NCBI GenBank assembly: GCA_964581365.1
Contig: CAZOOF010000004.1
Location: 442-64,441, forward strand
DNA: 64,000 bases
Direction of reading: 5' to 3'
DNA from: an uncultured Chromatiales bacterium
GTDB taxonomy: Bacteria > Pseudomonadota > Gammaproteobacteria > SZUA-140
Below the pieces are notes generated by a model. The model did not search any database, was not told the origin of the DNA, and saw only the letters and a list, made by a program, of their open reading frames with translations. Shown here piece after piece: positions 1 to 60,632 of this stretch. Within the stretch, counting starts at the first letter, position 1, and each line of letters begins with the position of its first letter. The translations under genes were made by a program, and so were the position numbers.

Positions 1-1795
1 CTCCGTCCAGCCGGTAGAAAACGCCGGCGCATCCCGAACCCGGCCCATCATCGCACCCCAGCGATACGGTGAGTGGTGCCACATAGTTGCCGCTCGGAAC
101 GCTGACCGAGATCAGAGGAGCCGCGAGATCGATGAAATAGCTGCGGCTCAGCGGCGTCTCGGCATTACCGGCGCCGTCGATCGCCAGCGCCCGCAGTGTC
201 ACGACTCCGGTGAGATGCCGGATCGGGTCGAGTTCGCTTTCCGGAATCGAGGGATCAGGAAACAGACTGGCGAGAGATAGGGGCGCGACATACTCGGGCG
301 AGTTCGCATCGGGTTCGGTCCCGTCCAGCGTATAGTAGATGGTGCAGCCGAATTCCGGCTGATCATCCACACACTTCAGCTGGACCCGCGGATCGGCTTC
401 CGCGCCGTAGATCCCCTCGGGAAGTGACACCTGGACCGCGGGCGCAAGATTGTCCACCGCATACATAGCGGTACGAATCCGCTCCCGATTGCCTGCTGTA
501 TCTTCGGAGAAAAAGCGCAGGCTGGTATTGGCGACCGGCACGGTCACCGGCCCGGCGGCGCAATCGGCCGGGGCCTCAGGATCATCGCCATCGCTGCGGT
601 AACAAACCTGCAGACAGTCGGCCGCACCGGCCACGCAGGCGAGCTCGACCATTCCCGCCTCGCGGTAGGCGCCTGCTTCCCGATCGAGCCCGGTCACCGG
701 CAAGCGGATATCCAGCCGTGCCAGAGGTTGGGGCAGGTCGATGCCGTCGATACGGCTCAGCTCGCCGCCGAGATGCAGCGCCTGCCGTTCAGCATCGACG
801 ATCAGGGTCTCGACCGACGCGATCGCCGAATCGCCACCTGGATTCCAGGCCATGAGCTCCGGCACTTCGGCATCGCTGCGGAATCCGGCAATGCGCTCGC
901 GCGGCGCACCATCCACCTGGGTGAAGGTGCCGCCCGCATACAAGCGCACGCCGGCACCATCCCAGGCGAGCGCGCGCACTTCACCATCGATGCCAGGATT
1001 CCAGCCGAGCATGGCGCCGCTTGTGAGTTCGAGCGCCGCCAGATTGCTGACCGTGCCGATCTGGAAATCACCGCCTGCATACAGCACTCCCTCGCCCAGG
1101 CTGAGAGCCTGCACACGCGCCCCGCCTGCCGGCGACGGTGCCCACTCCAGCGCGGCGGCGCTCGATATGGACAGCGCTGCCAGACCATTGCGAACCGTTC
1201 CCGAGATCGAAGCGTAGTCTCCGCCCGCATAGAGCCGACCGGTGCTCTCTTCGAGCGCCAGCGCATGCACCGGCCCATCCGGATCCGGTCGCCACGGCAG
1301 GGCGTTATCGGTGTTGACCTGGGTATCGAGGCTGGCCAGGCGCGAGCGGGGCGCACCGCCGATTTCGCTGAAATCGCCACCCGCATACAGGATCCGGCCG
1401 TTCGTGGAACGGGCAAAGGCGCGCACCGCGCCATCGGACCCCGGATCCCAGGGGGTGACATTACCACTGGCTGTATTTATTGCGGCGATGTTCGAGCGCG
1501 GGACGGCCCGTACCGTGCTGAAGTCTCCACCCACGAACACCACAGCGCCATTGGCAGACAGCTCCAGCGCATACACCGGGCCATCCGTGTCAGCGATCCA
1601 GTCCGCCTGGACACTGCCATCACGCAGATCGATCGATGCCAGATTGCTGCGCCCGGCCCCCAAGGTGAAATCGCCGCCGATGATCAACCTGTCACCAGCG
1701 ACGATCGCCGCATGGATGACGGGGCCGGCGGCCGCGGCCATCCCGGTCACGAGCATCAGCGCCAGGAATGCGCCAAGCATCCGGATCCGTGCCAT
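1..1795 (-). CDS. Secreted repeat protein, paralog of the next gene (C-terminus beyond the window). It has an N-terminal signal peptide, ~57-aa beta-propeller-type repeats with an L-Y-A-G-G-D-F motif, and CHB_HEX_C-like modules (YYTLDGTEP, LRFFSEDTAGN).
   Basis: Manual translation of the minus strand in the third frame, which the ORF track does not list because no stop falls in the window. The ATG at 1795..1793 gives MARIRMLGAFLALMLVTGMAAAAGP..., followed by repeats (LIIGGDF, VFVGGDFSTV, LYAGGDFSEIGG, LYAGGDYASISG, LYAGGDFQIGT). The start overlaps the upstream gene's stop as TGATG. Confidence 0.6.
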   Translation of the reverse strand, partial: MARIRMLGAFLALMLVTGMAAAAGPVIHAAIVAGDRLIIGGDFTLGAGRSNLASIDLRDGSVQADWIADTDGPVYALELSANGAVVFVGGDFSTVRAVPRSNIAAINTASGNVTPWDPGSDGAVRAFARSTNGRILYAGGDFSEIGGAPRSRLASLDTQVNTDNALPWRPDPDGPVHALALEESTGRLYAGGDYASISGTVRNGLAALSISSAAALEWAPSPAGGARVQALSLGEGVLYAGGDFQIGTVSNLAALELTSGAMLGWNPGIDGEVRALAWDGAGVRLYAGGTFTQVDGAPRERIAGFRSDAEVPELMAWNPGGDSAIASVETLIVDAERQALHLGGELSRIDGIDLPQPLARLDIRLPVTGLDREAGAYREAGMVELACVAGAADCLQVCYRSDGDDPEAPADCAAGPVTVPVANTSLRFFSEDTAGNRERIRTAMYAVDNLAPAVQVSLPEGIYGAEADPRVQLKCVDDQPEFGCTIYYTLDGTEPDANSPEYVAPLSLASLFPDPSIPESELDPIRHLTGVVTLRALAIDGAGNAETPLSRSYFIDLAAPLISVSVPSGNYVAPLTVSLGCDDGPGSGCAGVFYRLDG

Positions 1796-3720
1796 CACCG
1801 CGCCTCCCCGGAACTCAGACGCCGCCAGCCAAGCAATGCCAGGACGGACACGATCAGCAGTTCGCCGAATCCCAGCGCTCCGGCCTCGCCACGGATGCGC
1901 ACGTACTCGGCGCGTCGCACACCCTCAGGGTTGCCGGCGCCATCGACCGAGAAGAACTGCAGCACGGTAGTGCGATCGATTCGAATTGGCCCGGTATAGA
2001 GCGGGGATGATGCCGTTGGCAAGGTTCCGTCGGTGGTATAGCGGGTTTCGACGCAGCCGGGACGCTGGTCCGCGCAGCTCAGCCGCACCTGCAGTGAACC
2101 ATCGAATACGCCCGATGGCGGATCGGCAACGGTAGTCGGCGGATCGATCTCAACGATATAGCGCTCGACGCCCGCATTCTCGACGTTTCCCACCAGGTCG
2201 ACGGAAAAAAACCTCAGCTCCACATCCGCCGAGAGATTGATCGGCCCGGTATAGCGGTTCGAATCGGTGTTCGGTTCACTCCCGTCCAGGGTGTAGTACG
2301 TGGCCGCACAACCCGAACCGGCGCCATCGTCACACACCAGACGGACGAGCCCTTCGTCGCGTGAACTGATGAAGCCGCCCGGCGGCTCGGCGCGCGTCAG
2401 TGGCGGATCGTCCTCCGGCGGCAATGCCTCCAGTGCCACGAGACCTCCGCGCGGGACACCATCGATCACCGCAAACGCACCGCCTGCATAGAGGATGTCG
2501 CGGTCATCCTCCACACCTTCATCCCCCGGACCCTGATCATCTTCTTCATCTTCGCCATCGTCCGGCTCCTCCGCCGGTGCGGCAGGCGCATCCCAGGCAC
2601 CCAGCAGAACGTACGCGGCGGCGTCGGCAGCCACGACCCAGGCGACCAGCGGCGTGCCCTCGATGGTGTCCACCGCCGCCAGGCGGGAGCGCCCGGTGCC
2701 GGCGACGGTATCGAAGTCGCCGCCGAGATAGATCGCCCCGCGATCGAAGCCGACCGCGAGCGCATGGACAGGACCATCGATCCGCGGATTCCAGACCAGT
2801 GGTGCGCCGGAATCCAGGTCGAAGGCAGCAGCGCCGATCTGGGGCACGCCGCCGATCGAGGAGAAATCCCCCCCGGCGTAGATCACGCCGCGTTCAGCGA
2901 TCGAACGCAGGGCCAGCACCGCACCGTCATCGATCGGAGGCGCCCAATCGGAAAAACGGAAGGTGCTCAGTTCGATGGCAGCGAGCCGTTCGCCGACTGA
3001 GGCTTCCTCGTCTTCGCTGTCGCCGTCCTCCACCACTGGAACGAAGCGGCCACCGACATACAGCCGGTTGTTGACGACGGTCAGCGCATTGATCAGTGCT
3101 CCTGGCTCGAACAAGGGCCGCTGCCCCAGTCCGCTCAGATTGCCGGTACCCAGCAGTCCCAGCTCCGCGATGGCGCGCCGCTCGGCGCCGCCGATCCGCG
3201 AAAAACCGCCACCAATATAGAGCGAAGTGCCGACGGGGGAAGGTGTTATCGCCCGTACCGGTCCGTCGGCACCGGGATTCCAGGTGTCGGGCAGACCGAG
3301 CGTGGTGTCCACGGCGGCGAGACGTTCGCGAAACTGCCCTCCCACTGCGGCGAAATCACCGCCCAGATAGAGAGCGCTGCCAGCGGGGTTCAGCCACATT
3401 GCATATACGGGACCGTCAGGAGCGGGATCCCAGGCTGTCACTTCACCCGTGCTCAGATCGAATGCGGCCAGATTGCGACGGGTCACCACCGTATCGATGA
3501 GCGGATCCGCGGGGCTCACCTGGGTAAAATCTCCCCCGACATAGAGAATCCTGGCCGCCCGGTCCAGGGCAAGCGCATGCACCGGACCATCGGTGGCCCA
3601 AAGCCCGGCTCGTATTTCCACCGCATCCGCCGTAGCCGACAGGATCGCAGCCCAGGAAACCAGCAGGGCGCCACAGCGCGGCAGGAAGCCAGCCGAATGG
3701 GTGATTCTCGGAAAATTCAC
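1795..3720 (-). CDS. Secreted multi-repeat protein. It has a signal peptide, about 8 delta-60-like beta-propeller repeats (LYxGGDFxxVgGxxRxrLAAxDxxTGxxxxWnPxxDGPVxAL), an acidic D/E-rich linker, and two chitobiase/beta-hexosaminidase C-terminal-like (CHB_HEX_C) modules. The C-terminus is a Gly-rich, hydrophobic, RR tail (GALGFGELLIVSVLALLGWRRL).
   Basis: The tracked ORF is 1795..4119, but its first ~133 codons overlap purD and its divergent promoter. The probable start is the GTG at ~3720, which gives MNFPRITHSAGFLPRCGALLVSWAAILSATADA (signal peptide). Repeats and the YTLDGSEP/FFSVD motifs are visible in the translation. Confidence 0.6.
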   Translation of the reverse strand: MNFPRITHSAGFLPRCGALLVSWAAILSATADAVEIRAGLWATDGPVHALALDRAARILYVGGDFTQVSPADPLIDTVVTRRNLAAFDLSTGEVTAWDPAPDGPVYAMWLNPAGSALYLGGDFAAVGGQFRERLAAVDTTLGLPDTWNPGADGPVRAITPSPVGTSLYIGGGFSRIGGAERRAIAELGLLGTGNLSGLGQRPLFEPGALINALTVVNNRLYVGGRFVPVVEDGDSEDEEASVGERLAAIELSTFRFSDWAPPIDDGAVLALRSIAERGVIYAGGDFSSIGGVPQIGAAAFDLDSGAPLVWNPRIDGPVHALAVGFDRGAIYLGGDFDTVAGTGRSRLAAVDTIEGTPLVAWVVAADAAAYVLLGAWDAPAAPAEEPDDGEDEEDDQGPGDEGVEDDRDILYAGGAFAVIDGVPRGGLVALEALPPEDDPPLTRAEPPGGFISSRDEGLVRLVCDDGAGSGCAATYYTLDGSEPNTDSNRYTGPINLSADVELRFFSVDLVGNVENAGVERYIVEIDPPTTVADPPSGVFDGSLQVRLSCADQRPGCVETRYTTDGTLPTASSPLYTGPIRIDRTTVLQFFSVDGAGNPEGVRRAEYVRIRGEAGALGFGELLIVSVLALLGWRRLSSGEAR

Positions 3721-3913
3721 GGAGAAAACAGTGTGGCAGCGAGATGGTTCATCATAACCCTCTGACCGGCCACCGGCCAAGGAATTCCCCTGCTCCCGTG
3801 CTCCGCGCCTTCGTCTCCTGCTGTGGCGACGACGCTCCAGCCCAACGATTCCCCCGCAGGCGCTACGATGCGGTATCCTTTCTGCCTCATTCACGAGCCA
3901 TACCGGATCGCCC

Positions 3914-5200
3914 ATGAACGTACTGATCATCGGCAGTGGGGGCCGCGAGCACGCGCTGGCCTGGAAAGCGGCGCAGTCTCCGCTCGCCGACCGCATATTC
4001 GTCGCCCCCGGCAATGCCGGCACCGCCCGCGAACTGCGCATCGAAAACGTGCCGATCGATGTACTGGACATCGATGGCCTGCTCCGGTTCGCGCGAGAGA
4101 ATGACATCGGCCTGACCATCGTCGGACCGGAAGCTCCGCTGGTCGCCGGTATCGTCGATGCCTTCCGCGCCGAAGGCCTGCGTTGTTTCGGACCGGAGCG
4201 CGCCGCCGCCCAGCTCGAAGGCTCGAAGGCTTACGCCAAGGATTTCCTCGCCCGCCATGGCATTCCCACGGCGGCCTATGCGGTATTCAGCGAGGCGGCG
4301 CTGGCGCGTGACTGGATTCGCGCTCACGGCGCGCCACTGGTGGTCAAAGCCGATGGACTTGCCGCTGGCAAGGGCGTCATCATTGCCCGCACCGTGGATG
4401 AGGCGATCGCCGCCGTCGATGACATGCTCGAAGCCAATGCCTTCGGCGATGCCGGCCATCGCGTGGTGATCGAGGAATTCCTCGAGGGCGAGGAAGCGAG
4501 CTTCATCGTCATGAGTGACGGCAACACCGTGCTGCCGATGGCCAGTTCCCAGGACCACAAAGCACGCGACGATGGCGATACCGGACCCAACACTGGCGGC
4601 ATGGGGGCCTATTCACCCGCGCCGGTGATCACCGCCGAAATGCACGAACGGGTCATGCGCGAAGTGATCGAACCCACCATCCGCGGCATGGCGGCAGATG
4701 GCGTACGTTATACCGGCTTTCTGTACGCCGGCCTGATGATCGGCGCGGACGGATGCCCACGTGTGCTGGAATTCAATTGCCGCTTCGGTGACCCCGAAAC
4801 GCAGCCGATCATGCTGCGCCTGCGTTCCGACCTGGTCGCGCTCTGCCTAGCGGCAACCGAAGAGCGTCTCGCGAGCATGACGGCGGACTGGGATCCGCGC
4901 TGCGCCTTGGGTGTCGTACTGGCGGCCGAAGGATACCCGGGCAGCTACCGCAAGGGCGATCGCATCGAAGGGCTGGAAGCCGCCGCCGCTACCGGCGCGC
5001 AGATATTCCACGCCGGAACCGCACTGGATGACGAGGGCCAGGTGTTGACTGCTGGCGGGCGCGTACTCTGTGTCTGCGCCCTGGGTGACACCGTGCTGGC
5101 AGCCCAGCAAGCGGCCTATGAGGGCGTCGATCGCATCCGCTGGCCGGGGATGTTCTGCCGCCGTGACATCGGTCATCGCGCCATCGCTCGCGAAAACTGA
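3914..5200 (+). CDS. purD: Phosphoribosylamine--glycine ligase
   Basis: 428 aa, MNVLIIGSGGREHALAWK... ATP-grasp; full-length match to the PurD family. Confidence 0.95.
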   Translation: MNVLIIGSGGREHALAWKAAQSPLADRIFVAPGNAGTARELRIENVPIDVLDIDGLLRFARENDIGLTIVGPEAPLVAGIVDAFRAEGLRCFGPERAAAQLEGSKAYAKDFLARHGIPTAAYAVFSEAALARDWIRAHGAPLVVKADGLAAGKGVIIARTVDEAIAAVDDMLEANAFGDAGHRVVIEEFLEGEEASFIVMSDGNTVLPMASSQDHKARDDGDTGPNTGGMGAYSPAPVITAEMHERVMREVIEPTIRGMAADGVRYTGFLYAGLMIGADGCPRVLEFNCRFGDPETQPIMLRLRSDLVALCLAATEERLASMTADWDPRCALGVVLAAEGYPGSYRKGDRIEGLEAAAATGAQIFHAGTALDDEGQVLTAGGRVLCVCALGDTVLAAQQAAYEGVDRIRWPGMFCRRDIGHRAIAREN

Positions 5201-8459: not shown

Positions 8460-9406
8460 GCAATGCGTTCCGGCATTGCGGCGAGCGCCCGCAACAGCGC
8501 ATCGGTGATACCCGGCTCGGCAGCCGAATGACCGGCATCGGGAATTATGCGCAACTCCGCGCCGGGCCAGACTTCATGAAGCTCCCAGGCATTCTCCACC
8601 GGACACACTACGTCGTAGCGCCCATGAACGATGACTCCCGGGATGGACGCGATGCGATGCGCATCACGCAGCAACTGGTCTGGCTCCAGAAAAGAATCAT
8701 TGACGAAGTAGTGACACTCGATGCGGGCGAGAGCCAGCGCAGTGTAGGGATCCGAAAAATGGTCGACGATTTCCTTGCGCGGCAGCAGTGTGGACGTCCT
8801 CGCCTCCCAGCGCGACCATGCCTTGGCTGCGGCCATGCGGGCGACTTCGTCATCGCCGAACAGCCGCTGGTGATAGGCCTGCAGCAGGTTGCCGCGCTCG
8901 GCTTCGGGGATGGGACGCAGGAACTCGACCCAATAGTCCGGAAACAGGCGGCTCACCCCTTCCTGGTAGAACCAGCGGATCTCGTGCGGCCGGCACAGGA
9001 AGATGCCGCGCAGAACCAGGCCGAGCACGCGCTCGGGGTGAGTTTCGGCATAGGCGAGCGCGAGGGTCGAACCCCAGGAACCGCCGAACAGCAGCCAGCG
9101 ATCTATTCCAAGATGCTCGCGAATCCGCTCCATGTCGGCGACCAGCGCCCGGGTATCATTGCCGGCCACTTCAGCGTGCGGGGTCGAGCGGCCGCAGCCT
9201 CGCTGATCGAACAGTATGGCGCGGTAGATTTCCGGATCGAAGAAACGCCGGTGGTATGCCTCGCAACCGCCGCCCGGACCGCCATGAATGAATATCACCG
9301 GCAATCCGCCAGGATTACCGCACTCCTCCACGTAGAGGACATGCGGCGGATCGACCGCCAGCGTATGGGTGACGAAGGGCTTGATCGCTGGGAAAAGACC
9401 CATCAT
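8456..9406 (-). CDS. pip: Proline iminopeptidase (S33 alpha/beta hydrolase)
   Basis: HGGPGGG, GGSWGSTL nucleophile elbow; start set at MMGLFPAIKP (the tracked ORF extends into the metH 3' end). Confidence 0.85.
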   Translation of the reverse strand: MMGLFPAIKPFVTHTLAVDPPHVLYVEECGNPGGLPVIFIHGGPGGGCEAYHRRFFDPEIYRAILFDQRGCGRSTPHAEVAGNDTRALVADMERIREHLGIDRWLLFGGSWGSTLALAYAETHPERVLGLVLRGIFLCRPHEIRWFYQEGVSRLFPDYWVEFLRPIPEAERGNLLQAYHQRLFGDDEVARMAAAKAWSRWEARTSTLLPRKEIVDHFSDPYTALALARIECHYFVNDSFLEPDQLLRDAHRIASIPGVIVHGRYDVVCPVENAWELHEVWPGAELRIIPDAGHSAAEPGITDALLRALAAMPERIA

Positions 9407-9428
9407 CGAACAGTCCTCGACCGGTACT

Positions 9429-12002
9429 TCAGCCCTTTCCCGCGTCCCCGCTCGCCCGAATCCTGCTGCTGACGATCTCATCCATCAGGCGCAGCCCACT
9501 GAAGGCATCCTTGGCATAGTGCACGGAGTCAGGCCGCGTGTACACGGCCCGGCAGTCGCTCTCGACATAGCGACGAGTGAGCGCGGCGCCGCCTAGCAGC
9601 ACCGGCAGCTCCATGCCCTGGCGCCGCATCTCCTCCAGATTGTCCTTCATGATCACCGTCGACTTGACCAGCAGACCGGACATGCCGACGGCATCCGCAT
9701 CATGGTCACGCGCCGCTTCGATGATGTTTCCGATCGGCTGCTTGATGCCGAGGTTCACGACCCGGTACCCATTGTTGGTGAGAATGATATCAACCAGGTT
9801 CTTGCCGATGTCATGCACGTCGCCCTTGACCGTGGCAAGCACCAGCGTGCCCTTCTCCGAGCCTGCCGTCTTCTCCATGCGGGGTTCGAGGAAAGCCACC
9901 GCCGCCTTCATCGTCTCGGCAGACTGGAGCACAAACGGAAGTTGCATCTGCCCGGAACCAAACAGCTCGCCGACGACCTTCATTCCATCGAGCAGGAAGG
10001 TATTGATGATCTCGAGCGGAGAGTACTTTTCGAGCGCCTTACCCAGGTCTTCTTCCAGACCCTGGCGATCGCCATCGACGATGCGCTGCTTGAGCACCTC
10101 TTCGATCGTTTCCGGACGCGTCCGGCTGGCGCGCTCGATCTGCACGTCGCGGAACAGTTCGACGAAATGCAGCAGGGGATCGCGGCCGTCTCGATGATTA
10201 TTGAAGATCAGGTCCTCGGCGGCGATGCGATGCTCTTCGGGAATCCTGTGCAGCGGCAGAATCTTCGATACGTGGATGATGGCAGCCGTCATGCCGCGAG
10301 CCTGGGCATGGTGCAGGAACACCGAATTCAGGACCTGGCGCGCCGCAGGCGCGAGACCGAAGGAAATGTTGGACAGCCCGAGCATGATCTGACATTCGGG
10401 CAGTTCGCGGGCGATCGCCTCGATGGCATTCAGCGTGCTGATGCCATGTTCGCGGTCCTCATTGACGCCGGTACAGATGGTGAACGTCAACGGATCGAAC
10501 ACCAGATCGGATGCCGGCAGCCCATGCTCTTCCACCGCGAAGCGGTACAGACGATGGGCAATCTCGAGCTTGCGCTCGACGGACTTTGCCATCCCCTCCT
10601 CGTCTATGGTGAGCGCCACTACGGCGGCGCCATACCGCTTGGCATAGCCAAGCACGCGCGCCGCCTTTTCCTCTCCATCCTCGAAGTTGATGGAGTTGAT
10701 CATGCACTTGCCGCCGAGCAGCTTGAGCGCGGTTTCGATTACCGGCGGCTCGGTCGAGTCGATGACCAGAGGCACCGAGATCTGGCCCCGATACCGGCTG
10801 ACTACTTCGGCCATGTCCGAGGCTTCCGGACGCCCTACATAAGCAACGCAGACATCGAGCGCATGCGAGCCTTCCTTGACCTGCTCCCGTCCGAGCCCTA
10901 CCAGGCCGTCCCAGTCTTCCGCGGCGAGCAGTTCGCGGAACTTCTTCGATCCATTGGCGTTCGAGCGCTCGCCGATGGCGAAAACGGCGTTCTCCTGACG
11001 CAGCGGCACACTGGTATAGAGTGAACTCAGAGCCGGCACCAGCGTGACCTCGCGCTGGCGCGGAGCGGGATCGGAACGGCTGTCCAGCATTTCGCGCAGA
11101 CGTGCGATATGGGCCGGCGTAGTGCCGCAGCAGCCGCCGATCAGGTTCACGCAATCCTCTTCGACAAAACGCTGCTGCCAGTCCGCAAGCTCATCCGGAC
11201 CGAGCGGATACTCAGTGCGTCCGTCGACCAGCATCGGCAGCCCGGCGTTTGGCATCACCGAAATGAACCCGGGCCAGTTCTCGCCCAGATATTTCACATG
11301 CTCGGTCATCTCCGCAGGCCCGGTGGCGCAGTTCAGACCGATCGCGTCGACGTCCATCGCGGCCAGCGTAGTGACGGCGCAGCCGATATCCGAACCGACC
11401 AGCATGGCGCCGGTGGTTTCGATGGTGACCTGCGCGATGATCGGGACCTGCCGACCCTGCGTGGCGAAGGCGCGCCGCGCGGCACAGATGGCGGCCTTCA
11501 TCGTCAGCAGATCCTGATTGGTTTCGAGCAGCAATGCATCGACACCACCGTCGATCAGTCCACGAGCCTGCTCGTAGTATGAATCCTCCAGCGCATCGAA
11601 GTCGGTATGCCCCAGGCTGGGCAGGCGTGTACCGGGTCCCATGGAACCGAGCACATAGCGCGGCCAATCCGGCGTACTGAACTCGTCCGCGACTTCGCGA
11701 GCCAGCGTCGCGGCGATATGATTCAGCTCGTAAGTCCGCTCGACCAGATCGAACTCCGCGAACACGATCTTGTTGGCGCCGAAGGTGTTGGTCTCGACGC
11801 AATCGGCTCCCGCCTCGAAATAGGCCCGATGAAGCTTGCGCACGAAGTCGGGGCGCGTGCTGCAAAGGATCTCGGAGCAGTTCTCCAGACCGAGAAAATC
11901 GCGCTCCACATCCCAGGTTTCCGCCTGGATGAGTGTGCCGGTACCGCCATCGCAAAGCAGTACGCGACGGCGCAGACGATCGATGAAGGCTTCCCGTTCC
12001 AC
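9429..12002 (-). CDS. metH: Cobalamin-dependent methionine synthase, core only (Hcy-binding, pterin-binding and B12 cap/binding domains); lacks the C-terminal AdoMet reactivation domain
   Basis: The true start is GTG at 12002 (MEREAFIDRLRRRVLLCDGGTGT, GAGGT 7 nt upstream); the tracked N-terminal 146 aa are Arg-rich nonsense antisense to lpxL. The protein ends ...LLGGAALTRRYVESD...ASGDAGKG right after the B12-binding domain, ~857 aa versus ~1227 aa for E. coli MetH. Confidence 0.9.
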   Translation of the reverse strand: MEREAFIDRLRRRVLLCDGGTGTLIQAETWDVERDFLGLENCSEILCSTRPDFVRKLHRAYFEAGADCVETNTFGANKIVFAEFDLVERTYELNHIAATLAREVADEFSTPDWPRYVLGSMGPGTRLPSLGHTDFDALEDSYYEQARGLIDGGVDALLLETNQDLLTMKAAICAARRAFATQGRQVPIIAQVTIETTGAMLVGSDIGCAVTTLAAMDVDAIGLNCATGPAEMTEHVKYLGENWPGFISVMPNAGLPMLVDGRTEYPLGPDELADWQQRFVEEDCVNLIGGCCGTTPAHIARLREMLDSRSDPAPRQREVTLVPALSSLYTSVPLRQENAVFAIGERSNANGSKKFRELLAAEDWDGLVGLGREQVKEGSHALDVCVAYVGRPEASDMAEVVSRYRGQISVPLVIDSTEPPVIETALKLLGGKCMINSINFEDGEEKAARVLGYAKRYGAAVVALTIDEEGMAKSVERKLEIAHRLYRFAVEEHGLPASDLVFDPLTFTICTGVNEDREHGISTLNAIEAIARELPECQIMLGLSNISFGLAPAARQVLNSVFLHHAQARGMTAAIIHVSKILPLHRIPEEHRIAAEDLIFNNHRDGRDPLLHFVELFRDVQIERASRTRPETIEEVLKQRIVDGDRQGLEEDLGKALEKYSPLEIINTFLLDGMKVVGELFGSGQMQLPFVLQSAETMKAAVAFLEPRMEKTAGSEKGTLVLATVKGDVHDIGKNLVDIILTNNGYRVVNLGIKQPIGNIIEAARDHDADAVGMSGLLVKSTVIMKDNLEEMRRQGMELPVLLGGAALTRRYVESDCRAVYTRPDSVHYAKDAFSGLRLMDEIVSSRIRASGDAGKG

Positions 12003-12086
12003 TGCATTACCTCGGCCGACTGGCGACTGAATCAAACCTGATATGATACCCGCAAAACGCCCCCACCCACAGGCCAGGACGCCGTT

Positions 12087-12968
12087 TTGAAGCGAGAAAT
12101 GTTCATCAGGCTGTTCATGCGGCTTTGCGCGGCGCTGCCGTTGCGAGGCGCGCATGCGCTTGGCGCCGCGCTGGGGTCTGTTCTCGCGCTCATGCCGGGG
12201 CGCATCCGCAAAATTACGCACTGCAATGTGAAACTCTGCTTCCCCGAACTGTCCCCGTCTGAGCAGCGCCGCCTGGCATCGCGTTCGCTGCGAGGCACCG
12301 GCCAGACAGTGGCCGAGACCGGCGCGCTCTGGCACTGGCCGCCTGATCGCGTACTGGCGCTGATCACGGAAGTGGACGGGCGTGCTCCCGTCGATGCCGC
12401 CCTGCGCGCGGGTCGGGGAGCCATTCTGATGACTCCTCATCTCGGCAACTGGGAACTGGTCGGCCTGTACTGCTCTACGCTCTATCCGCTCACCAGCCTG
12501 TACCGCCCGCCGCGCATGAAGGGACTGGAAACGTATATGCGCGGATCACGCGAACGCTTTGGCGCCCGCCTGGTGCCGACGACCGCAGGCGGTGTCCGCC
12601 ACCTCTATCGCGCACTGGCCAGAGGGGAATTCATCGGGCTTCTTCCCGACCAGGAGCCGCAGCCGGGAAGCGGGGTATTCGCGCCCTACTTCGGCATACA
12701 GGCCTATACCATGACGCTGCTGGCGCGCCTGCTGGAGAAACACGAGGTTCCGGTATTCTTCGTCCACTCCGAACGCCTGCCTCGCAGTGCGGGATTCCGG
12801 ATCTGTTTCCAGCCCATGACTGCTGACTTCGACCGCAGCGATACGATCAGCGTGTGTACGGCAATGAATGCCGGCGTCGAAGCATGCGTGCGCCGCATTC
12901 CGGACCAGTACCAGTGGAACTACAAGCGCTTCCGCACCCGTCCCGAAGGAGAGCAACGCTTCTACTGA
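12087..12968 (+). CDS. Lipid A biosynthesis lauroyl/myristoyl acyltransferase (LpxL/HtrB/MsbB family)
   Basis: 293 aa; HLGNWE acyltransferase motif, PDQEP region. Confidence 0.8.
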   Translation: MKREMFIRLFMRLCAALPLRGAHALGAALGSVLALMPGRIRKITHCNVKLCFPELSPSEQRRLASRSLRGTGQTVAETGALWHWPPDRVLALITEVDGRAPVDAALRAGRGAILMTPHLGNWELVGLYCSTLYPLTSLYRPPRMKGLETYMRGSRERFGARLVPTTAGGVRHLYRALARGEFIGLLPDQEPQPGSGVFAPYFGIQAYTMTLLARLLEKHEVPVFFVHSERLPRSAGFRICFQPMTADFDRSDTISVCTAMNAGVEACVRRIPDQYQWNYKRFRTRPEGEQRFY

Positions 12969-19962: not shown

Positions 19963-20534
19963 TCGTGCCAGCCACTGCTCAGGCGCCAGTCCGATGAAAC
20001 CAGCGCCCGAAGACGCAGCGGAACGGGCAATGCATCGGTATCCATGCTGGCGCGCATACGGCCGATATAGCTCGCTTCGGGATCGAGCAGATTGGCATCT
20101 ATCAGTGGCAGATCGACGATCCGGCCAAGGGCGTCCAGCGCAGCTTCGCGGGTCGGAAATGCGGCTTGCGTGTCGATATTGAGATTGCGGACGGTGTACT
20201 GACGAGTGAGCTCGTGATGATCGAGCTCATAGCGTTGTTTGAGCGTGGTGACCGTCTCGTTCCAGAGATAGGGGCGTTCGCGCAGGATCTCCACCTCCAG
20301 AATCACCGGCACGGGCACGCCGCGCTCGAGAGCCTCGACGACTGGAGAGCCGAGAATGAAATGTATCCCGGCATTGAGGTAGTACACCTCGTCGCGCAAC
20401 ACCACCGATACCTGCTCGGTCCGAAAGCCGGCAACCTCCGCCACGGACTCAGGCGCCTCATCCTCGGCACTCACGGTGATCGCCGACATGAACAGCGCGA
20501 TCGCTCCGAATCGCATTGCGCAACGCATCATCAT
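19950..20534 (-). CDS. DUF4390 family periplasmic protein (conserved partner of ntrYX)
   Basis: 194 aa with signal peptide; conserved position between rsmB and ntrY. Confidence 0.6.
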   Translation of the reverse strand: MMMRCAMRFGAIALFMSAITVSAEDEAPESVAEVAGFRTEQVSVVLRDEVYYLNAGIHFILGSPVVEALERGVPVPVILEVEILRERPYLWNETVTTLKQRYELDHHELTRQYTVRNLNIDTQAAFPTREAALDALGRIVDLPLIDANLLDPEASYIGRMRASMDTDALPVPLRLRALVSSDWRLSSGWHEWRF

Positions 20535-21862
20535 GGCTGATATTCGCCGGTCGGAAGCCTGTCGAGGCGCCCGTAGAAGAAACCGTCCATGCCATCGAAG
20601 CCGGGCAGAATCTGTCGGCCACAGCTCAGCGCCCGCCCCCAGGGCGCGCCGATCTTACGCACGCTGGCATCAGTACGCCCGGAGACGAACTCTGCCAGCT
20701 GGACGTCGTTTTCCTGCTGAATAATAGAGCAAGTCGCATACAAGAGCATCCCACCCGGCGCCAGCATCGTCCAGGCGGCATCGAGCAGCTCGCGCTGACG
20801 AGCGGCGAGGCTGGCGATATCCTCCGGGCGCCGCAGCCGCTTTATATCCGGGTGACGGCGGATCACTCCGGTTCCCGAGCAGGGAGCATCCAGCAGAATA
20901 CGGTCGAAGGGAACTCCATCCCACCAGTCACCGGGGCGCGCACCGTCGCCGCAGACCAGCTCGGCTTCCAGGCCGAGACGGTCGAGCCCTTCACGGACAC
21001 GCTGCAGGCGAGCAGAATCGATATCCACGGCGACGAGGTCTCCAATGCCCGGCTCGGTCTCAAGGATGTGCGCCGTCTTGCCCCCGGGCGCCGCACAGAG
21101 ATCGAGCACCCGCTGACCCGGCTCGAGCTCGAGCAACGGAGCCGCCAGCTGCGCCGCTCCATCCTGCACCGATACCAGGCCATCGGCGAAACCCGGCAGC
21201 CGCGCAATGTCCTGCGGCTGCTCGAGAACTATTCCCCAAGGACAAAACGCCAGCTCCTTTGCCGCGATCTCCGCCTCCTTCAAAAGGAGCAGGTACTCCT
21301 CGCGGCTGATGCGTCGCTGGTTTATCCGCAGACTCATCGGCGGCCGCTCGTTGGCAGCCGCCGCGATTGCGTCGGCGTCGCCTGGCCAGTCAGCGCGCAA
21401 GCGTTCGAACAGCCATTCGGGGTGAGCCAGAGCGATGGCAGGATTTTTATCGACTCGTGCCAGCAGCGCTGAGGCCTCGCGCTGAAAGCGGCGCAATACC
21501 GCGTTGGTCAGGCCGCGAGCCCATGACTTCCCGAGCGCGGCGGTCACCGCCACGGTCGCCGCCACTGCGGCATGCGGCGGGATGCGCGTGTAAATGAGCT
21601 GATACAGACCGGCAAGAATGAGGCAGTGGACATCGAGATCGCGCTTTCCCAGGGGGCGCTGCAGCAACTGCCCGGCCAGCGCTTCCAGACGCGGCCCCCA
21701 ACGCATCACCCCGTAAGCGAGATCCTGGGCCAGCGCGCGATCGCGCGGCTCGGTGACTTGCGGCAATACCGCGGAGCAGGACTGGGTGAGCGAGCGGCCG
21801 GCAGCATACACGTCGACCAGGATCCGGACCGCCGCATGGCGCGCATCCATCGCGGCACTCAT
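20531..21862 (-). CDS. rsmB: 16S rRNA (cytosine967-C5)-methyltransferase
   Basis: NusB-like N-terminal domain plus m5C methyltransferase core (DLCAAPGGKT, PCSGTGV). Start at MSAAMDARHAAV, 1 nt after the fmt stop. Confidence 0.9.
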   Translation of the reverse strand: MSAAMDARHAAVRILVDVYAAGRSLTQSCSAVLPQVTEPRDRALAQDLAYGVMRWGPRLEALAGQLLQRPLGKRDLDVHCLILAGLYQLIYTRIPPHAAVAATVAVTAALGKSWARGLTNAVLRRFQREASALLARVDKNPAIALAHPEWLFERLRADWPGDADAIAAAANERPPMSLRINQRRISREEYLLLLKEAEIAAKELAFCPWGIVLEQPQDIARLPGFADGLVSVQDGAAQLAAPLLELEPGQRVLDLCAAPGGKTAHILETEPGIGDLVAVDIDSARLQRVREGLDRLGLEAELVCGDGARPGDWWDGVPFDRILLDAPCSGTGVIRRHPDIKRLRRPEDIASLAARQRELLDAAWTMLAPGGMLLYATCSIIQQENDVQLAEFVSGRTDASVRKIGAPWGRALSCGRQILPGFDGMDGFFYGRLDRLPTGEYQP

Positions 21863-21863
21863 G

Positions 21864-22796
21864 TCAGACGCCGCTGCGGCTGCGCACCGCGTTGATGAAC
21901 TCGGCCGCGGCCAGACGGCGCCCCCCCGGACGCTGTACCTCGAGCAGTCGCAGCACGCCATCGCCGGTTGCCACGTCGATCCCGTCGCGGTCGGCGGCTA
22001 CCAGCGCTCCGGGCGCCTGCCCGGTTGCGCCGGGCAACGCCACCGCGCGCCAGACGCGCAAGGGACCGAAATCCGGCAGCTCGCCGTGCGCCACCGGCCA
22101 GGGATTGAAAGCACGCACCTTGCGTTCCAGCAACTCTGCCGGCTCGCCCCAGTCGAGCAGCGCTTCGGATTTGTCGAGCTTGGCGGCATAAGTCGCCAGC
22201 GCCGGATCCTGCGCCTCACCTTCTAGGTGACCTGCGGAGGAAAGCCGGTTGACGACCGCATTCAATGCCTGCCCGCCGAGCTGCGCGAGACGATCGTGAA
22301 GGGAGCCGCCGGTGTCTTCGGGCAGGATGGGACAGGCAACCCGATGCAGCATATTGCCTGTATCGAGACCGGCGTCCATGCGGATGATGGTGATCCCGGT
22401 CTCGCTATCGCCGGCGAGTATCGCTCGCTGGATGGGGGCGGCGCCGCGCCAGCGCGGCAGCAGAGAGGCATGCACATTGATGCAGCCGAGCTTCGGGATG
22501 GCGAGAACTTCCGGAGGCAACAGCAGGCCGTAGGCGACCACCACCATCAGATCCGGGGCCAGTTCACGCAGTTCACGATGCACACCGGCATCCCGCAGCC
22601 CGGCAGGCTGGCGGACTTCGATACCGTGCTGCAGAGCCAGTTCCTTTACCAGACTGGCCTGCAGACGCCGCCCCCGGCCCGCCGGCCGGTCCGGCTGCGT
22701 GTAGACGGCTACCACCTGATGACCGGCATCCAGCAGCGCCCGCAGCGAAACGGCAGCAAACTCGGGCGTGCCGGCAAAAACGATGCGCATCGTCAC
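21864..22796 (-). CDS. fmt: Methionyl-tRNA formyltransferase
   Basis: [11 protein letters not shown]...; the start (GTG 22796 or ATG 22790) overlaps the def stop. Confidence 0.92.
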
Positions 22797-59429: not shown

Positions 59430-60632
59430 TCACTCCGAAACCGGCTTGCGCTGATCGGCCTCATCGAGCCGCTCATCATCTTTACTCGCCGGGTCCAGCG
59501 GACGCTTCGAAGCCAGATACAGGCCGAAGGCCGGCCACTGCAGCAGCAGCGAAAACACCAGTACGGCGAAAGTTGTCACCGCGATCAGCGCCACATCCGC
59601 GCTTTGCGCCAGCATCAGCACCAGCACCACGGCGAAGCCGCCGCGCATGCCCGTCCAGGCCGCGATCCGGGGCAACTCATCCGGCAGCTGGTGACGCAAG
59701 CCGAACAGCCATATCGAGGCTGCAGCCAGGATCCGCGGCAGCAGTACCACGAGCGGCAGCAGGAAGGCTGCCGCTGCCAGGTGGCGGCCCGGGATCTCCA
59801 GGGTCACAAGAACCACCCCAAGAGCGATCGGCAGCAGCGCCGCCAGCAGATTGGCCACCCACGCGGACCACAATTCCAGACGCGCACGCTGGATGCCATC
59901 GCCGAAAGCCTCATCGCGTTGAAACGCCATCAGCAGGCCGGCGCAGGCAGCAGCCAGCGGGCCATTCAACGGTAGCGTCTGTCCGGCGTACCAGCACGCC
60001 AGAACGGTGCCTGCTGCCGCGACGGCCGCAAGCAGCGCGTGCGCTCCAAGCCGCAGCACCCACATCATCGCCAGCCCCAGACATGCGCCGAGCAGCAGGG
60101 CGCCGCCCGCCTGCTCCAGCACCATTGCTGAGATCGCACCGCGAACGCCATCGGCCCGCGCCAGCGCCACCTCATAGATCACCAGTCCAAGCATGCACGC
60201 AAGCAGAGGTTCGGCCATCACCCGTCGGCCAACCGCGCTCGAGCCTCCCAACGCCACCGCGCGCAGCATCGCCAGCGGTTCGGAGGGCGTGATCAGGGCA
60301 GCGAACGCGAAGGCGTATGCCAGCGGCAGTTCGATACCGAGGCGGGTGCAGACCCAACGCGTGGCAGCCGCCACCAGGGCTATCGCGAGCGCGGTCGTCA
60401 GCAGCGCAAGATTGCCGCCCAGCACCACGGTCCGCCAGGAACCCCGGGGGCGAAGCTGCACCGCTGCGCCAAACATGAGAACGCACATAAGCGCCTCGAG
60501 CACAGCGCCCGATGACGTCAGCGAAGCCGCAATCGAGTGCAGGAAATCCGCGGGGAGCGATCCCGGCGCCATCGTCTCGACGAGCAGCATGACGAATACG
60601 ACGAGCACGACGGTAAAACGGAGAGACATCAT
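59430..60632 (-). CDS. Cation:proton antiporter (Na+/H+ exchanger family)
   Basis: 400 aa with ~11-12 TM segments; CPA-family pattern. Confidence 0.7.
   Translation of the reverse strand: MMSLRFTVVLVVFVMLLVETMAPGSLPADFLHSIAASLTSSGAVLEALMCVLMFGAAVQLRPRGSWRTVVLGGNLALLTTALAIALVAAATRWVCTRLGIELPLAYAFAFAALITPSEPLAMLRAVALGGSSAVGRRVMAEPLLACMLGLVIYEVALARADGVRGAISAMVLEQAGGALLLGACLGLAMMWVLRLGAHALLAAVAAAGTVLACWYAGQTLPLNGPLAAACAGLLMAFQRDEAFGDGIQRARLELWSAWVANLLAALLPIALGVVLVTLEIPGRHLAAAAFLLPLVVLLPRILAAASIWLFGLRHQLPDELPRIAAWTGMRGGFAVVLVLMLAQSADVALIAVTTFAVLVFSLLLQWPAFGLYLASKRPLDPASKDDERLDEADQRKPVSE

Follow-up and report, generated by a model that had tools for sequence, protein, structure and literature searches.

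Two adjacent genes on the minus strand, here called A and B, lie at the left edge of the window, that is, the whole stretch of 64,000 nucleotides that we analysed (Table 1). The initial annotation described them as tandem paralogues with a TGATG stop/start overlap at 1795, and both parts of that description hold: the stop of A and the ATG of B share bases as cggTGATGgca, and A and B align over 604 aa with 33% identity (E = 4e-59). It was also right that the left-edge paralogue is missing from the list of open reading frames, because B has no stop in the window; its frame is open through base 1. We read the full length of B from the public contig L001, which matches positions 1-4025 of the window at 99.975% identity. 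The reading frame around gene A extends over 1795..4119 on the minus strand, with a likely start at GTG 3720; this start is uncertain by 20 codons, as the 661-aa protein P0001 of the public annotation begins at TTG 3780. The 193-bp gap between A and the divergent purD contains a sigma-70-like promoter match that overlaps the alternative TTG start and constitutes weak evidence, with 1 match observed against 0.5 expected by chance. The gene calls of A and B overlap in relatives too, by 8 nt in L004 and 14 nt in L007, and we regard the two as an overlapping pair of paralogues that is probably co-translated.

Database searches returned 1,728 homologues, and orthologous A-B pairs, flanked by purD and purH, occur in at least 20 species of uncultured gammaproteobacteria known from MAGs, in the order purD, A B, purH-fis-dusB. 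Because of these homologues and orthologous pairs, chance is excluded, and the locus is real and conserved, if fairly ordinary. Domain order and Pfam families are those of proteins that NCBI names 'Chitobiase/beta-hexosaminidase C-terminal domain-containing protein' (P0006, P0018 and P0057), which combine a DUF5122/Rax2-type propeller with CHB_HEX_C_1/Fn3_assoc modules; the orthologues are 35-73% identical over their full length, and A and B show no difference in kind from this family. The family has no solved structure and barely figures in the literature, and no member has been studied experimentally.

Table 1. Genes and features at the A-B locus, in window coordinates
Feature	Coordinates	Strand	Basis
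Gene A, complete, 641 aa, propeller/CHB_HEX_C	1795..3720	-	GTG start 3720, TGA stop 1797-1795
Signal-peptide-like N-terminus of A, residues 1-33: VNFPRITHSAGFLPR / CGALLVSWAAILSA / TADA-V	3622..3720	-	sequence inspection
Seven-bladed beta-propeller of A, residues ~40-436	2413..3603	-	motif spacing, AlphaFold model, Foldseek
Poly-acidic disordered insertion in blade 7 of A, residues ~379-408, EEPDDGEDEEDDQGPGDEGVEDD	2497..2586	-	motif positions, model
CHB_HEX_C_1 / Fn3_assoc module 1 of A, residues ~441-523 (CDDGAGSGCAATYYTLDGSEP ... RFFSVDLVGN)	2152..2400	-	Pfam, model
CHB_HEX_C_1 / Fn3_assoc module 2 of A, residues ~529-608	1897..2136	-	best Pfam stretch 534-601; model
Tripartite C-terminal tail of A, residues 609-641	1798..1896	-	alignment, model, conservation
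Sigma-70-like promoter match TTGGCC-18-TATGAT	3751..3780	-	30 nt upstream of GTG 3720
Gene B, 5' 598 of 694 codons	1..1795	-	ATG 1795-1793; other 96 codons left of window
Signal-peptide-like N-terminus of B, residues 1-23: MARIR / MLGAFLALMLVTGMAAA / A-GP	1727..1795	-	sequence inspection, hydrophobic segment
Seven-bladed beta-propeller of B, residues ~25-365	701..1723	-	blade motifs; Rax2, DUF5122
Three CHB_HEX_C_1 modules of B	1..676	-	Pfam, full-length B
B module 1, residues 374-441	676-473	-	24.0 bits, cut-off 22
B module 2, residues 468-547	394-155	-	46.0 bits, cut-off 22
B module 3, residues 567-640, cut by window edge	97-1	-	28.1 bits, cut-off 22

Both proteins begin, by inspection, with a signal-peptide-like segment, in agreement with the initial annotation. 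In A, an n-region ending in FLPR is followed by the h-region CGALLVSWAAILSA and then by A-D-A before V; residues 1-32 have low pLDDT in the AlphaFold model, with residues 18-25 helical, and the hydrophobic N-terminus is kept among the aligned orthologues. B starts with MARIR, continues with LGAFLALMLVTGMAAA and reaches AAA before GP.

The body of each protein carries seven units with the pattern (L/I)(Y/F)xGGxF ... RLAAxD ... W(N/D)P ... DGxVxAL, whose blade motifs begin at residues 59, 117, 167, 220, 280, 330 and 410 of A and at residues 37, 86, 136, 188, 238, 285 and 340 of B. The spacing is 47-60 aa, mostly about 50, so that the originally proposed repeat length of about 57 aa is slightly high; a single unit of A is 80 aa long because it holds the acidic insertion. 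The AlphaFold2 model of A (pLDDT 89, pTM 0.81) has seven blades, two sandwich domains and a terminal helix at 618-636, and its best Foldseek matches are seven-bladed propellers (WD40, TM 0.80), which bears out the propeller fold. The proposed delta-60 identity fared less well: TIGR02608 had no match at E<=1. The likeness to delta-60 and DUF5122 (PF17164) consists of the blade repeat of about 50 aa and of weak PF17164 matches with the LYxGGxF strand at their centre; these matches scored 25.0 bits against a cut-off of 27 in A and 29-30.3 bits in B. Pfam Rax2 was likewise just under its cut-off in A and barely over it in B (32.9 bits). The poly-acidic stretch EEPDDGEDEEDDQGPGDEGVEDD is present as first described; it is not an inter-domain linker, however, but a disordered loop between two strands of blade 7 (pLDDT 56-73). 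Its length differs among A orthologues, most of which have an alignment gap there.

Pfam CHB_HEX_C_1 (PF13290, cut-off 22) matched A with 114.5 bits in two stretches (E = 2.2e-33) and the window part of B with 63.1 bits; the E-value for B is 1e-23. Two such modules had been assigned to each protein; this is correct for A, whereas B has three. The domain name might suggest that A and B are chitobiases or other glycoside hydrolases, and module 2 of A weakly matches the C-terminal domain of the beta-hexosaminidase structure 6q63 (E = 0.003). We find this reading scarcely credible, since the two proteins share with such enzymes just the accessory C-terminal Ig-like module, no catalytic family, including any glycoside-hydrolase family, was matched in A or B by Pfam or NCBIfam, and the remainder of each protein is a propeller that matches no enzyme family. 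A and B are probably non-enzymatic, exported binding proteins.

The tripartite tail reported for A is confirmed, with GEAGALGFGELLIVSVLALLGWRRLSSGEAR as the true C-terminus: a motif R-G-E-A-G614-A-L, which begins directly after the last beta-strand of the model, is followed by a TM helix (about 618-636, including E620) with the basic residues R633 and R634. The tail of B has these three parts as well (small-residue motif, TM helix, Arg/Lys), as read from contig L001 left of the window. G614 is invariant across 52 homologues; among the 24 closest, a second Gly and an Arg of the tail are kept by at least 90%. The A-type consensus is NRGE(V/A)GAL..E (36 tails) and the B-type consensus (T/E)(R/S)SGV-G-A, also TRSGVGAxD (17 tails), each with one invariant Gly. 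Immediately before that Gly, 28 of 36 A-type tails have V, A or I, and 11 of 17 B-type tails have V. Neither window tail contains Gly-Gly; the pattern is instead hydrophobic-Gly-small (A-G-A in A, V-G-A in B). In most A-type tails a conserved Glu stands at +6 from the Gly, where the helix starts, and B-type tails have an Asp at +3; an acidic residue in this place is probably not typical of GlyGly-CTERM sequences. Tails of this type are confined to A and B homologues within about 400 kb of orthologous neighbourhoods. Because both paralogues keep the tail at only 33% identity, with an invariant Gly, it appears to behave as a functional module.

The initial annotation likened the tail to a GlyGly-CTERM or PEP-CTERM anchor, and named the failure of sorting-signal models beforehand as grounds for refutation. 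We searched NCBIfam (June 2026) and Pfam and found that no curated model (GlyGly-, PEP-, MYXO-CTERM or others) reached its cut-off on the window-locus tails of A or B. Neither TIGR03501 (GlyGly-CTERM) nor TIGR02595 (PEP-CTERM) had a match at E<=10, and the only match was VPDSG-CTERM through the TM part, at 13-14 bits against a cut-off of 22. Among the orthologues, TIGR03501 (cut-off 15.5) was passed by the tails of P0010 (17.1 bits) and of the L012 B orthologue (16.1), while P0007 stayed below it at 13.9. These passes are marginal (+1.6 and +0.6 bits) out of about 60 tails tested, and could be due to chance. All three alignments place the invariant Gly on model position 3. TIGR03501 matches more tails (5 of 41) than any other model and is the sole sorting-signal model whose cut-off was reached by any tail. 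More distant orthologues have the GG-type motifs NYGGPGSL, HSGGGLS and SQGGSGGL at the motif site. The weak matches below cut-off are spread over GlyGly, MYXO, LPXTG, GVDTG, IPTL and VPDSG models, mostly through the TM and basic part.

Thus the architecture, the conserved motif and the two orthologue passes speak for the GlyGly-CTERM part of the original proposal, while both window tails miss the models and PEP-CTERM can be dropped. A GlyGly-CTERM-like function remains the best reading of the tails, as a likeness rather than as demonstrated membership. Haft and Varghese accepted sub-threshold tails provided that they stood at the C-terminus, were tripartite and could be linked by homology to a trusted instance (PMC3237569). 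Likenesses to the GlyGly-CTERM/rhombosortase system (TIGR03501/TIGR03902; VesB-RssP of Vibrio cholerae) include a signal peptide together with a tripartite tail at the extreme C-terminus, a motif without Cys, a gammaproteobacterial host, an invariant Gly that every match places at the Gly-motif end of the model, and passenger domains that are unrelated to the tail and found elsewhere with other anchors (PMC3237569). A and B differ from that system in having hydrophobic-Gly-small-hydrophobic in place of Gly-Gly, in the acidic residue at the helix start, in the lack of an unstructured linker ahead of the A motif, in window tails that fall short of TIGR03501 entirely, and in having no rhombosortase nearby: no rhomboid-like ORF was found in the window, nor was one closer than 10 kb to any of over 30 orthologous loci, in a total of 1.3 Mb searched. 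Haft observed that the protease is usually adjacent in genomes with a single target.

We put at about one in two the probability that A and B make up an operon of two translationally coupled genes, for paralogous envelope proteins that lack a catalytic domain and are sorted in the GlyGly-CTERM manner. Both would be exported by Sec via the N-terminal signal peptide. The HMMs and the confident model show that they fold into a seven-bladed propeller and, behind it, Ig-like CHB_HEX_C sandwiches, of which A has two and B three. From its architecture, the C-terminal helix with its cytoplasmic Arg/Lys cluster would first hold the protein in the inner membrane, and the small-residue motif just outside the helix would most likely be the sorting signal. 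The remaining steps are proposed by analogy. In VesB, cleavage by rhombosortase exposes the second Gly, to which a glycerophosphoethanolamine moiety is attached prior to T2SS export (PMC6219818). A and B might similarly be cut after the invariant Gly by a rhombosortase-like intramembrane protease whose gene would lie elsewhere; the new C-terminus would be lipid-linked and the protein presented on the cell surface, as VesB is in Vibrio cholerae. The window shows no T2SS genes.

The helix could instead be a permanent stop-transfer anchor. This would make A and B bitopic inner-membrane proteins whose propeller and Ig-like domains act in the periplasm, for example in envelope maintenance, with the Gly motif a mere flexible hinge. 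The failure of the window tails on every curated model is consistent with this, as are the lack of a sorting protease in the window or adjoining any orthologue and vertical inheritance among housekeeping genes in at least 20 MAG species, which suits a core envelope function; an inner-membrane-anchored form is, moreover, an obligatory intermediate of the sorting pathway (PMC6219818). However, a permanent anchor needs neither an invariant Gly nor a position-specific motif common to paralogues this divergent, the combination of signal peptide, extreme C-terminal TM helix and basic cluster is that of processed sorting signals (PMC3237569), orthologues exchange the motif for a GG type with the architecture kept, and distant propeller homologues are clearly extracellular. 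We therefore consider a permanent anchor somewhat unlikely.

The same model failures and scattered weak matches, together with a consensus (NRGEVGAL..E / SGVGAxD) that lacks Gly-Gly and has a hydrophobic residue at -1 and an acidic one at +6 or +3, could point to a new class of sorting signal read by a dedicated, unrecognised enzyme other than rhombosortase. Against this, the only cut-offs reached were those of TIGR03501, in a consistent register, the orthologues form a continuum towards GG-type motifs, and no conserved candidate enzyme gene adjoins the pair at any locus compared; a new class thus seems distinctly unlikely. Sorting by exosortase, myxosortase or T9SS is very improbable. It is favoured only by the generic tripartite architecture and by MYXO-CTERM scores of 14-16 bits (cut-off 20) on some orthologues. 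The tails have no P-E-P motif, the A/B motif lacks the Cys that is invariant in MYXO-CTERM (PMC3237569), and A and B have no Por_Secre_tail. Nor was a rhomboid or exosortase gene found in the window, whose only unassigned multi-TM protein (59430-60632) bears a very weak resemblance to a Na+/H+ exchanger (E = 0.45).

Returning to GlyGly-CTERM-like sorting, distant homologues of the propeller bear a T9SS Por_Secre_tail, dockerin or RTX repeats, and these other extracellular tags fit Haft's pattern of the same passenger with different anchors. Overall, we take A and B for uncharacterised binding proteins of the surface or periplasm whose tail is a GlyGly-CTERM-like variant. At the cell surface they are likely to bind ligands or carbohydrates or to serve in adhesion, possibly as a pair. 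The CHB_HEX_C-like modules also resemble a domain (NF047446) of the Leptospira beta-barrel surface protein OmpL47, at 37.4 bits, short of the cut-off of 40; the model for the whole of OmpL47 gave only 13.7 bits where 250 are needed, and A and B have a propeller whereas OmpL47 does not.

Genes A and B, at the left edge of the window, are co-oriented, overlapping paralogues on the minus strand, as the initial annotation had proposed. At the TGATG junction the stop codon of A (TGA, 1797-1795) shares bases with the start codon of B (ATG, 1795-1793), and the two proteins are 33% identical across 604 amino acids (E = 4e-59). B is visible as 598 codons, open down to base 1 of the window; because it has no stop inside the window, it is missing from the ORF listing, an omission already pointed out from the sequence. 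The missing end was supplied by the Logan contig L001, which matches window positions 1-4025 at 99.975% identity with one mismatch. The sequence to the left of the window therefore yielded both this edge paralogue, at 694 amino acids, and its tail.

Coordinates of gene A, its promoter-like match and its modelled domains
Feature	Position	Strand	Remark
Gene A	ORF end 1795, likely start GTG 3720	minus	641 aa
Sigma-70-like match, TTGGCC-18-TATGAT	3780..3751	minus	30 nt upstream of GTG 3720
Propeller of A	residues ~40-436		AlphaFold2
Beta-sandwich domains of A	residues 441-523 and 529-608		AlphaFold2
Terminal helix of A	residues 618-636		AlphaFold2

The ORF of A remains open as far as 4119, but extension that far would lead to overlap with the divergent gene purD (3914-5200, plus strand). 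P0001, the public gene call for A, is 661 amino acids long, with a TTG start inside the sigma-70-like match. As the number of such matches upstream of A is barely above chance (1 found, 0.5 expected), the position of the start can be fixed only to within 20 codons; the coincidence of the promoter-like match with the TTG suggests that the public version is 20 residues too long.

By inspection, the N-termini of both proteins look like Sec signal peptides: the n-region is basic, the core is hydrophobic, and the site is of the AxA type. A and B would be exported by the Sec route. We rejected A as a lipoprotein, since its LPRC is, again by inspection, not a lipobox. Each protein contains seven units of the form (L/I)(Y/F)xGGxF ... 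RLAAxD ... W(N/D)P ... DGxVxAL, spaced at 47-60 amino acids, with a single unit of 80 amino acids in A. In a confident AlphaFold2 model of A, computed from 52 homologues (mean pLDDT 89, pTM 0.81), seven four-stranded blades are predicted to form the closed ring of a seven-bladed beta-propeller, and the propeller claimed from the sequence is supported by this prediction. A Foldseek search of the PDB with this model returned only generic seven-bladed propellers, of the WD40 type or of designer origin (target-normalised TM-score 0.80-0.82), and no functional lead; the matches of the corresponding sequence search were limited to a designed propeller and the C-domain of a hexosaminidase. Among Pfam families, Rax2 scored just under its cut-off for A and just over it for B, and DUF5122 (PF17164, cut-off 27 bits) scored 25.0 bits in A and 30.3 and 29.0 bits in B. 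The attribution of the blades to the delta-60 type was not confirmed, as TIGR02608 gave no match at E<=1 for either protein. Our literature search on DUF5122 and delta-60 found one modelling study and nothing on biology. The acidic run of A (residues ~379-408), previously taken for a linker, is in the model a low-confidence loop joining two strands within blade 7, and it is short or missing in most orthologues; blade 4 has a second, shorter acidic loop.

Both A and B are PF13290 (CHB_HEX_C_1) domain-containing proteins, with scores above the gathering cut-off of 22 bits: 114.5 bits over two stretches in A, 63.1 bits in the window part of B, and 83.5 bits over three stretches in full-length B, whose modules scanned singly gave 24.0, 46.0 and 28.1 bits. 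The initial count of two such modules per protein is thus right for A and one too low for B, whose third module runs past the edge of the window. Fn3_assoc overlaps CHB_HEX_C_1 in the Pfam results for both. Neither Pfam nor NCBIfam returned a catalytic domain for A or B, GH20 included, which makes it extremely improbable that they are glycosidases. The two share a domain architecture that is already known, though uncharacterised, and on their sequences can be described as putatively exported, non-enzymatic proteins in which a seven-bladed propeller and Ig-like domains are followed by a conserved anchor or sorting tail.

A ends in ...EYVRIRGEAGALGFGELLIVSVLALLGWRRLSSGEAR and B, as known through L001, in ...APEVQGESGVGANGPGWLLVLMIAALGAMLRNRFESGSAPGRMR. 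The tail of A runs from RGEAGAL through the terminal helix to Arg633 and Arg634, and that of B from GESGVGANGPG through WLLVLMIAALGAML to RNR, leaving 8 and 14 residues, respectively, between the basic cluster and the end of the protein. This layout of motif, TM helix and basic cluster is kept in 53 orthologue tails; the tripartite, sorting-like tail first noticed in A is therefore conserved, and B has one as well. Gly614 of A is the one tail residue that is invariant in 52 full-length homologues, while Gly611 and Arg634 are kept in at least 90% of the 24 closest. The consensus is N-R-G-(E/K)-(V/A/I)-G-A-(L/F)-x-x-x-E-(L/M)-L for 36 A-type tails and (T/S)-R-S-G-V-G-A-hydrophobic-D for 17 B-type tails. 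Glycine occupies position -1, counted from the invariant Gly, in 1/36 A-type and 0/17 B-type tails; more distant orthologues carry NYGGPGSL, HSGGGLS or SQGGSGGL at the same site. Within the orthologous neighbourhoods, such tails occur only on homologues of A and B. Judged by its invariant glycine and position-specific consensus, the tail is not a random anchor.

We compared both tails with the sorting-signal models of NCBIfam (June 2026) and Pfam. Measured by the refutation test that the initial annotation had itself set, they failed, and neither reached a curated cut-off: the sole match for A was that of its helix to VPDSG-CTERM (13-14 bits, cut-off 22), and B had zero matches. PEP-CTERM, one of the classes proposed, found no support, with no P-E-P motif in the A and B tails and no match to TIGR02595 at E<=10. 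For MYXO-CTERM (TIGR03901) the signature always includes a Cys and the score has to be at least 20 bits; the motif here contains no Cys, and the best orthologue scores were 14-16 bits. GlyGly-CTERM (TIGR03501, trusted cut-off 15.5 bits) gave no match at E<=10 for either window tail, but it is the only model whose cut-off is reached among the approximately 60 orthologue tails scanned, and it matches more tails than any other model (5/41). It scored 17.1 bits on P0010, an orthologue of A at 53% identity with which A aligns over its full length, 16.1 bits on the tail of the B orthologue in locus L012, and 13.9 bits on the orthologue P0007. In all three alignments, model position 3 is the invariant Gly. 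The pass of P0010 is marginal and 1 among ~60 tails tested; with that number of tails scanned, these marginal passes are suggestive of GlyGly-CTERM, not proof of it.

Haft & Varghese accepted tails scoring below threshold, provided that they lay at the C-terminus, had the tripartite layout and were connected by homology through a trusted instance (PMC3237569), a rule under which the tails of A and B would be GlyGly-CTERM candidates. They share with that class the order of motif, TM helix and basic cluster, and their place at the extreme C-terminus of proteins whose N-terminus, by inspection, resembles a signal peptide. The GlyGly-CTERM signature is a run of at least two Gly, often SGGS (PMC3237569), whereas A has G-E-A-G-A-L and B has S-G-V-G-A-N, with no Gly-Gly in either. 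Tails of the A/B type further differ in the hydrophobic residue that precedes the invariant Gly and in a conserved Glu at +6 (A-type) or Asp at +3 (B-type). In V. cholerae, the cut that rhombosortase makes in VesB leaves the motif's second Gly exposed, and this residue is then linked to a glycerophosphoethanolamine-containing moiety before export by the T2SS and retention on the surface (PMC6219818; PMC13393428). By analogy, the tails of A and B may work through GlyGly-CTERM-like sorting, to which we assign a probability of about 0.5; cleavage would follow the invariant Gly, and the proteins would be displayed on the cell surface, where they might act in binding or adhesion. If the tails do depend on rhombosortase, that system would gain a substrate without Gly-Gly. 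The most apt description of the tail is a variant form of a signal type already known, one overlooked by current models.

Several other readings bear on the same tails. The helix and basic cluster could form a permanent inner-membrane anchor that holds the domains of A and B in the periplasm, which we regard as the less probable outcome by some distance, the tail being more than a random anchor in its sequence. The tails might also define a new sorting class, processed by a so far unrecognised enzyme, and this we consider rather unlikely. Equally doubtful is its more specific form, in which the NRGE(V/A)-G-AL..E and SGV-G-AxD tails would be a distinct, undescribed signal, limited to one fast-evolving surface-protein pair that an uncultured, Chromatiales-like gammaproteobacterial lineage maintains at a constant place between purD and purH; a specialised rhomboid, or another so far unrecognised enzyme, would process it from a gene elsewhere. 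Sorting through PEP-CTERM, MYXO-CTERM or T9SS is very improbable for A and B; T9SS tails, dockerin or RTX repeats do occur in place of the A/B tail on distant propeller homologues, a pattern of the same passenger with a different anchor.

No ORF with the rhomboid or rhombosortase pattern GxSGxxxG...HxxGxxxG was found in the window or in 78 loci of 1.3 Mb in total, and none of rhomboid type lies within 10 kb of any locus orthologous to A-B. The scan of the window and all loci for active-site pairs of rhomboid or rhombosortase gave only three chance matches, all in non-membrane proteins, and the 64-kb window contains no rhomboid-like or exosortase-like protein. One candidate, a 400-aa protein with approximately 10 hydrophobic segments (59430-60632, minus strand), was rejected as a sorting enzyme: rhomboid motifs are missing, Pfam gave no match at E<=0.001, and the one resemblance, to the CPA1 Na+/H+ exchanger model TIGR00840, is very weak (E = 0.45).

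The databases hold 1728 homologues of A, and the architecture is common in MAGs of uncultured Gammaproteobacteria/Chromatiales, in which it goes at NCBI under the name 'chitobiase/beta-hexosaminidase C-terminal domain-containing protein'. A genome-contig search with a single protein found no relative, unlike an alignment-based search, which did recover relatives; no cultured relative was found. The synteny of A and B is conserved, with the order hemF-tsaC-purD / A B / purH-fis-dusB kept in at least 20 species-level MAGs of uncultured Gammaproteobacteria/Chromatiales, as seen in loci L004 and L007-L028. Identity to the window proteins is 33-76% for A and B and 68-93% for purD, which together with the conserved order indicates vertical inheritance and fast evolution; diversifying pressure may act on A and B. 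Neither horizontal transfer nor a mobile element was retained as an explanation, given the same synteny and a GC content of 0.65, as in the rest of the window. Strict placement between purD and purH combined with rapid divergence marks A and B as putative lineage-typical surface proteins. For two hypothetical 'chitobiase C-terminal domain' proteins the analysis offers a more accurate description, and is otherwise routine annotation. Because today's HMMs for sorting signals miss the tail consensus, curators could widen GlyGly-CTERM or set up a new class, and either model would improve surface-proteome prediction in this uncultured lineage.

At three orthologous loci long ORFs stand in place of the two genes: one of 2031 amino acids in L013 (8636-14728), and one of ~1260 amino acids with two propeller-like regions in each of L036 and L037 (~8960-12780). 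Gene fusion, duplication, or an artefact of assembly or reading frame might account for them.

The view that A-B is the only clearly non-housekeeping, surface/secreted locus in the window agrees with its gene content, the rest comprising purD, a Sua5/YrdC-family gene (tsaC-like), hemF, metH, trkAH, a two-component system, topA, ubiB and envelope enzymes. No tRNA genes, and no Rfam matches at gathering score, were found in the 64 kb. The methionine-synthase-like ORF at 9429-12440 (minus strand) has the domains S-methyl_trans, Pterin_bind, B12-binding_2 and B12-binding, without the C-terminal activation domain; as its Pfam match begins at residue 161, translation probably begins further downstream, and its relatives in L004 and L007 have 853-857 amino acids and the same four domains. 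In the order of transcription, the minus-strand segment 13540-21961 encodes an unassigned 476-aa ORF (20531-21961), a DUF4390 protein (Pfam, 2e-45), a putative kinase, a putative regulator, trkA and trkH; the sensor kinase, response regulator and trkA/trkH were named by N-terminal sequence, TM pattern and synteny.
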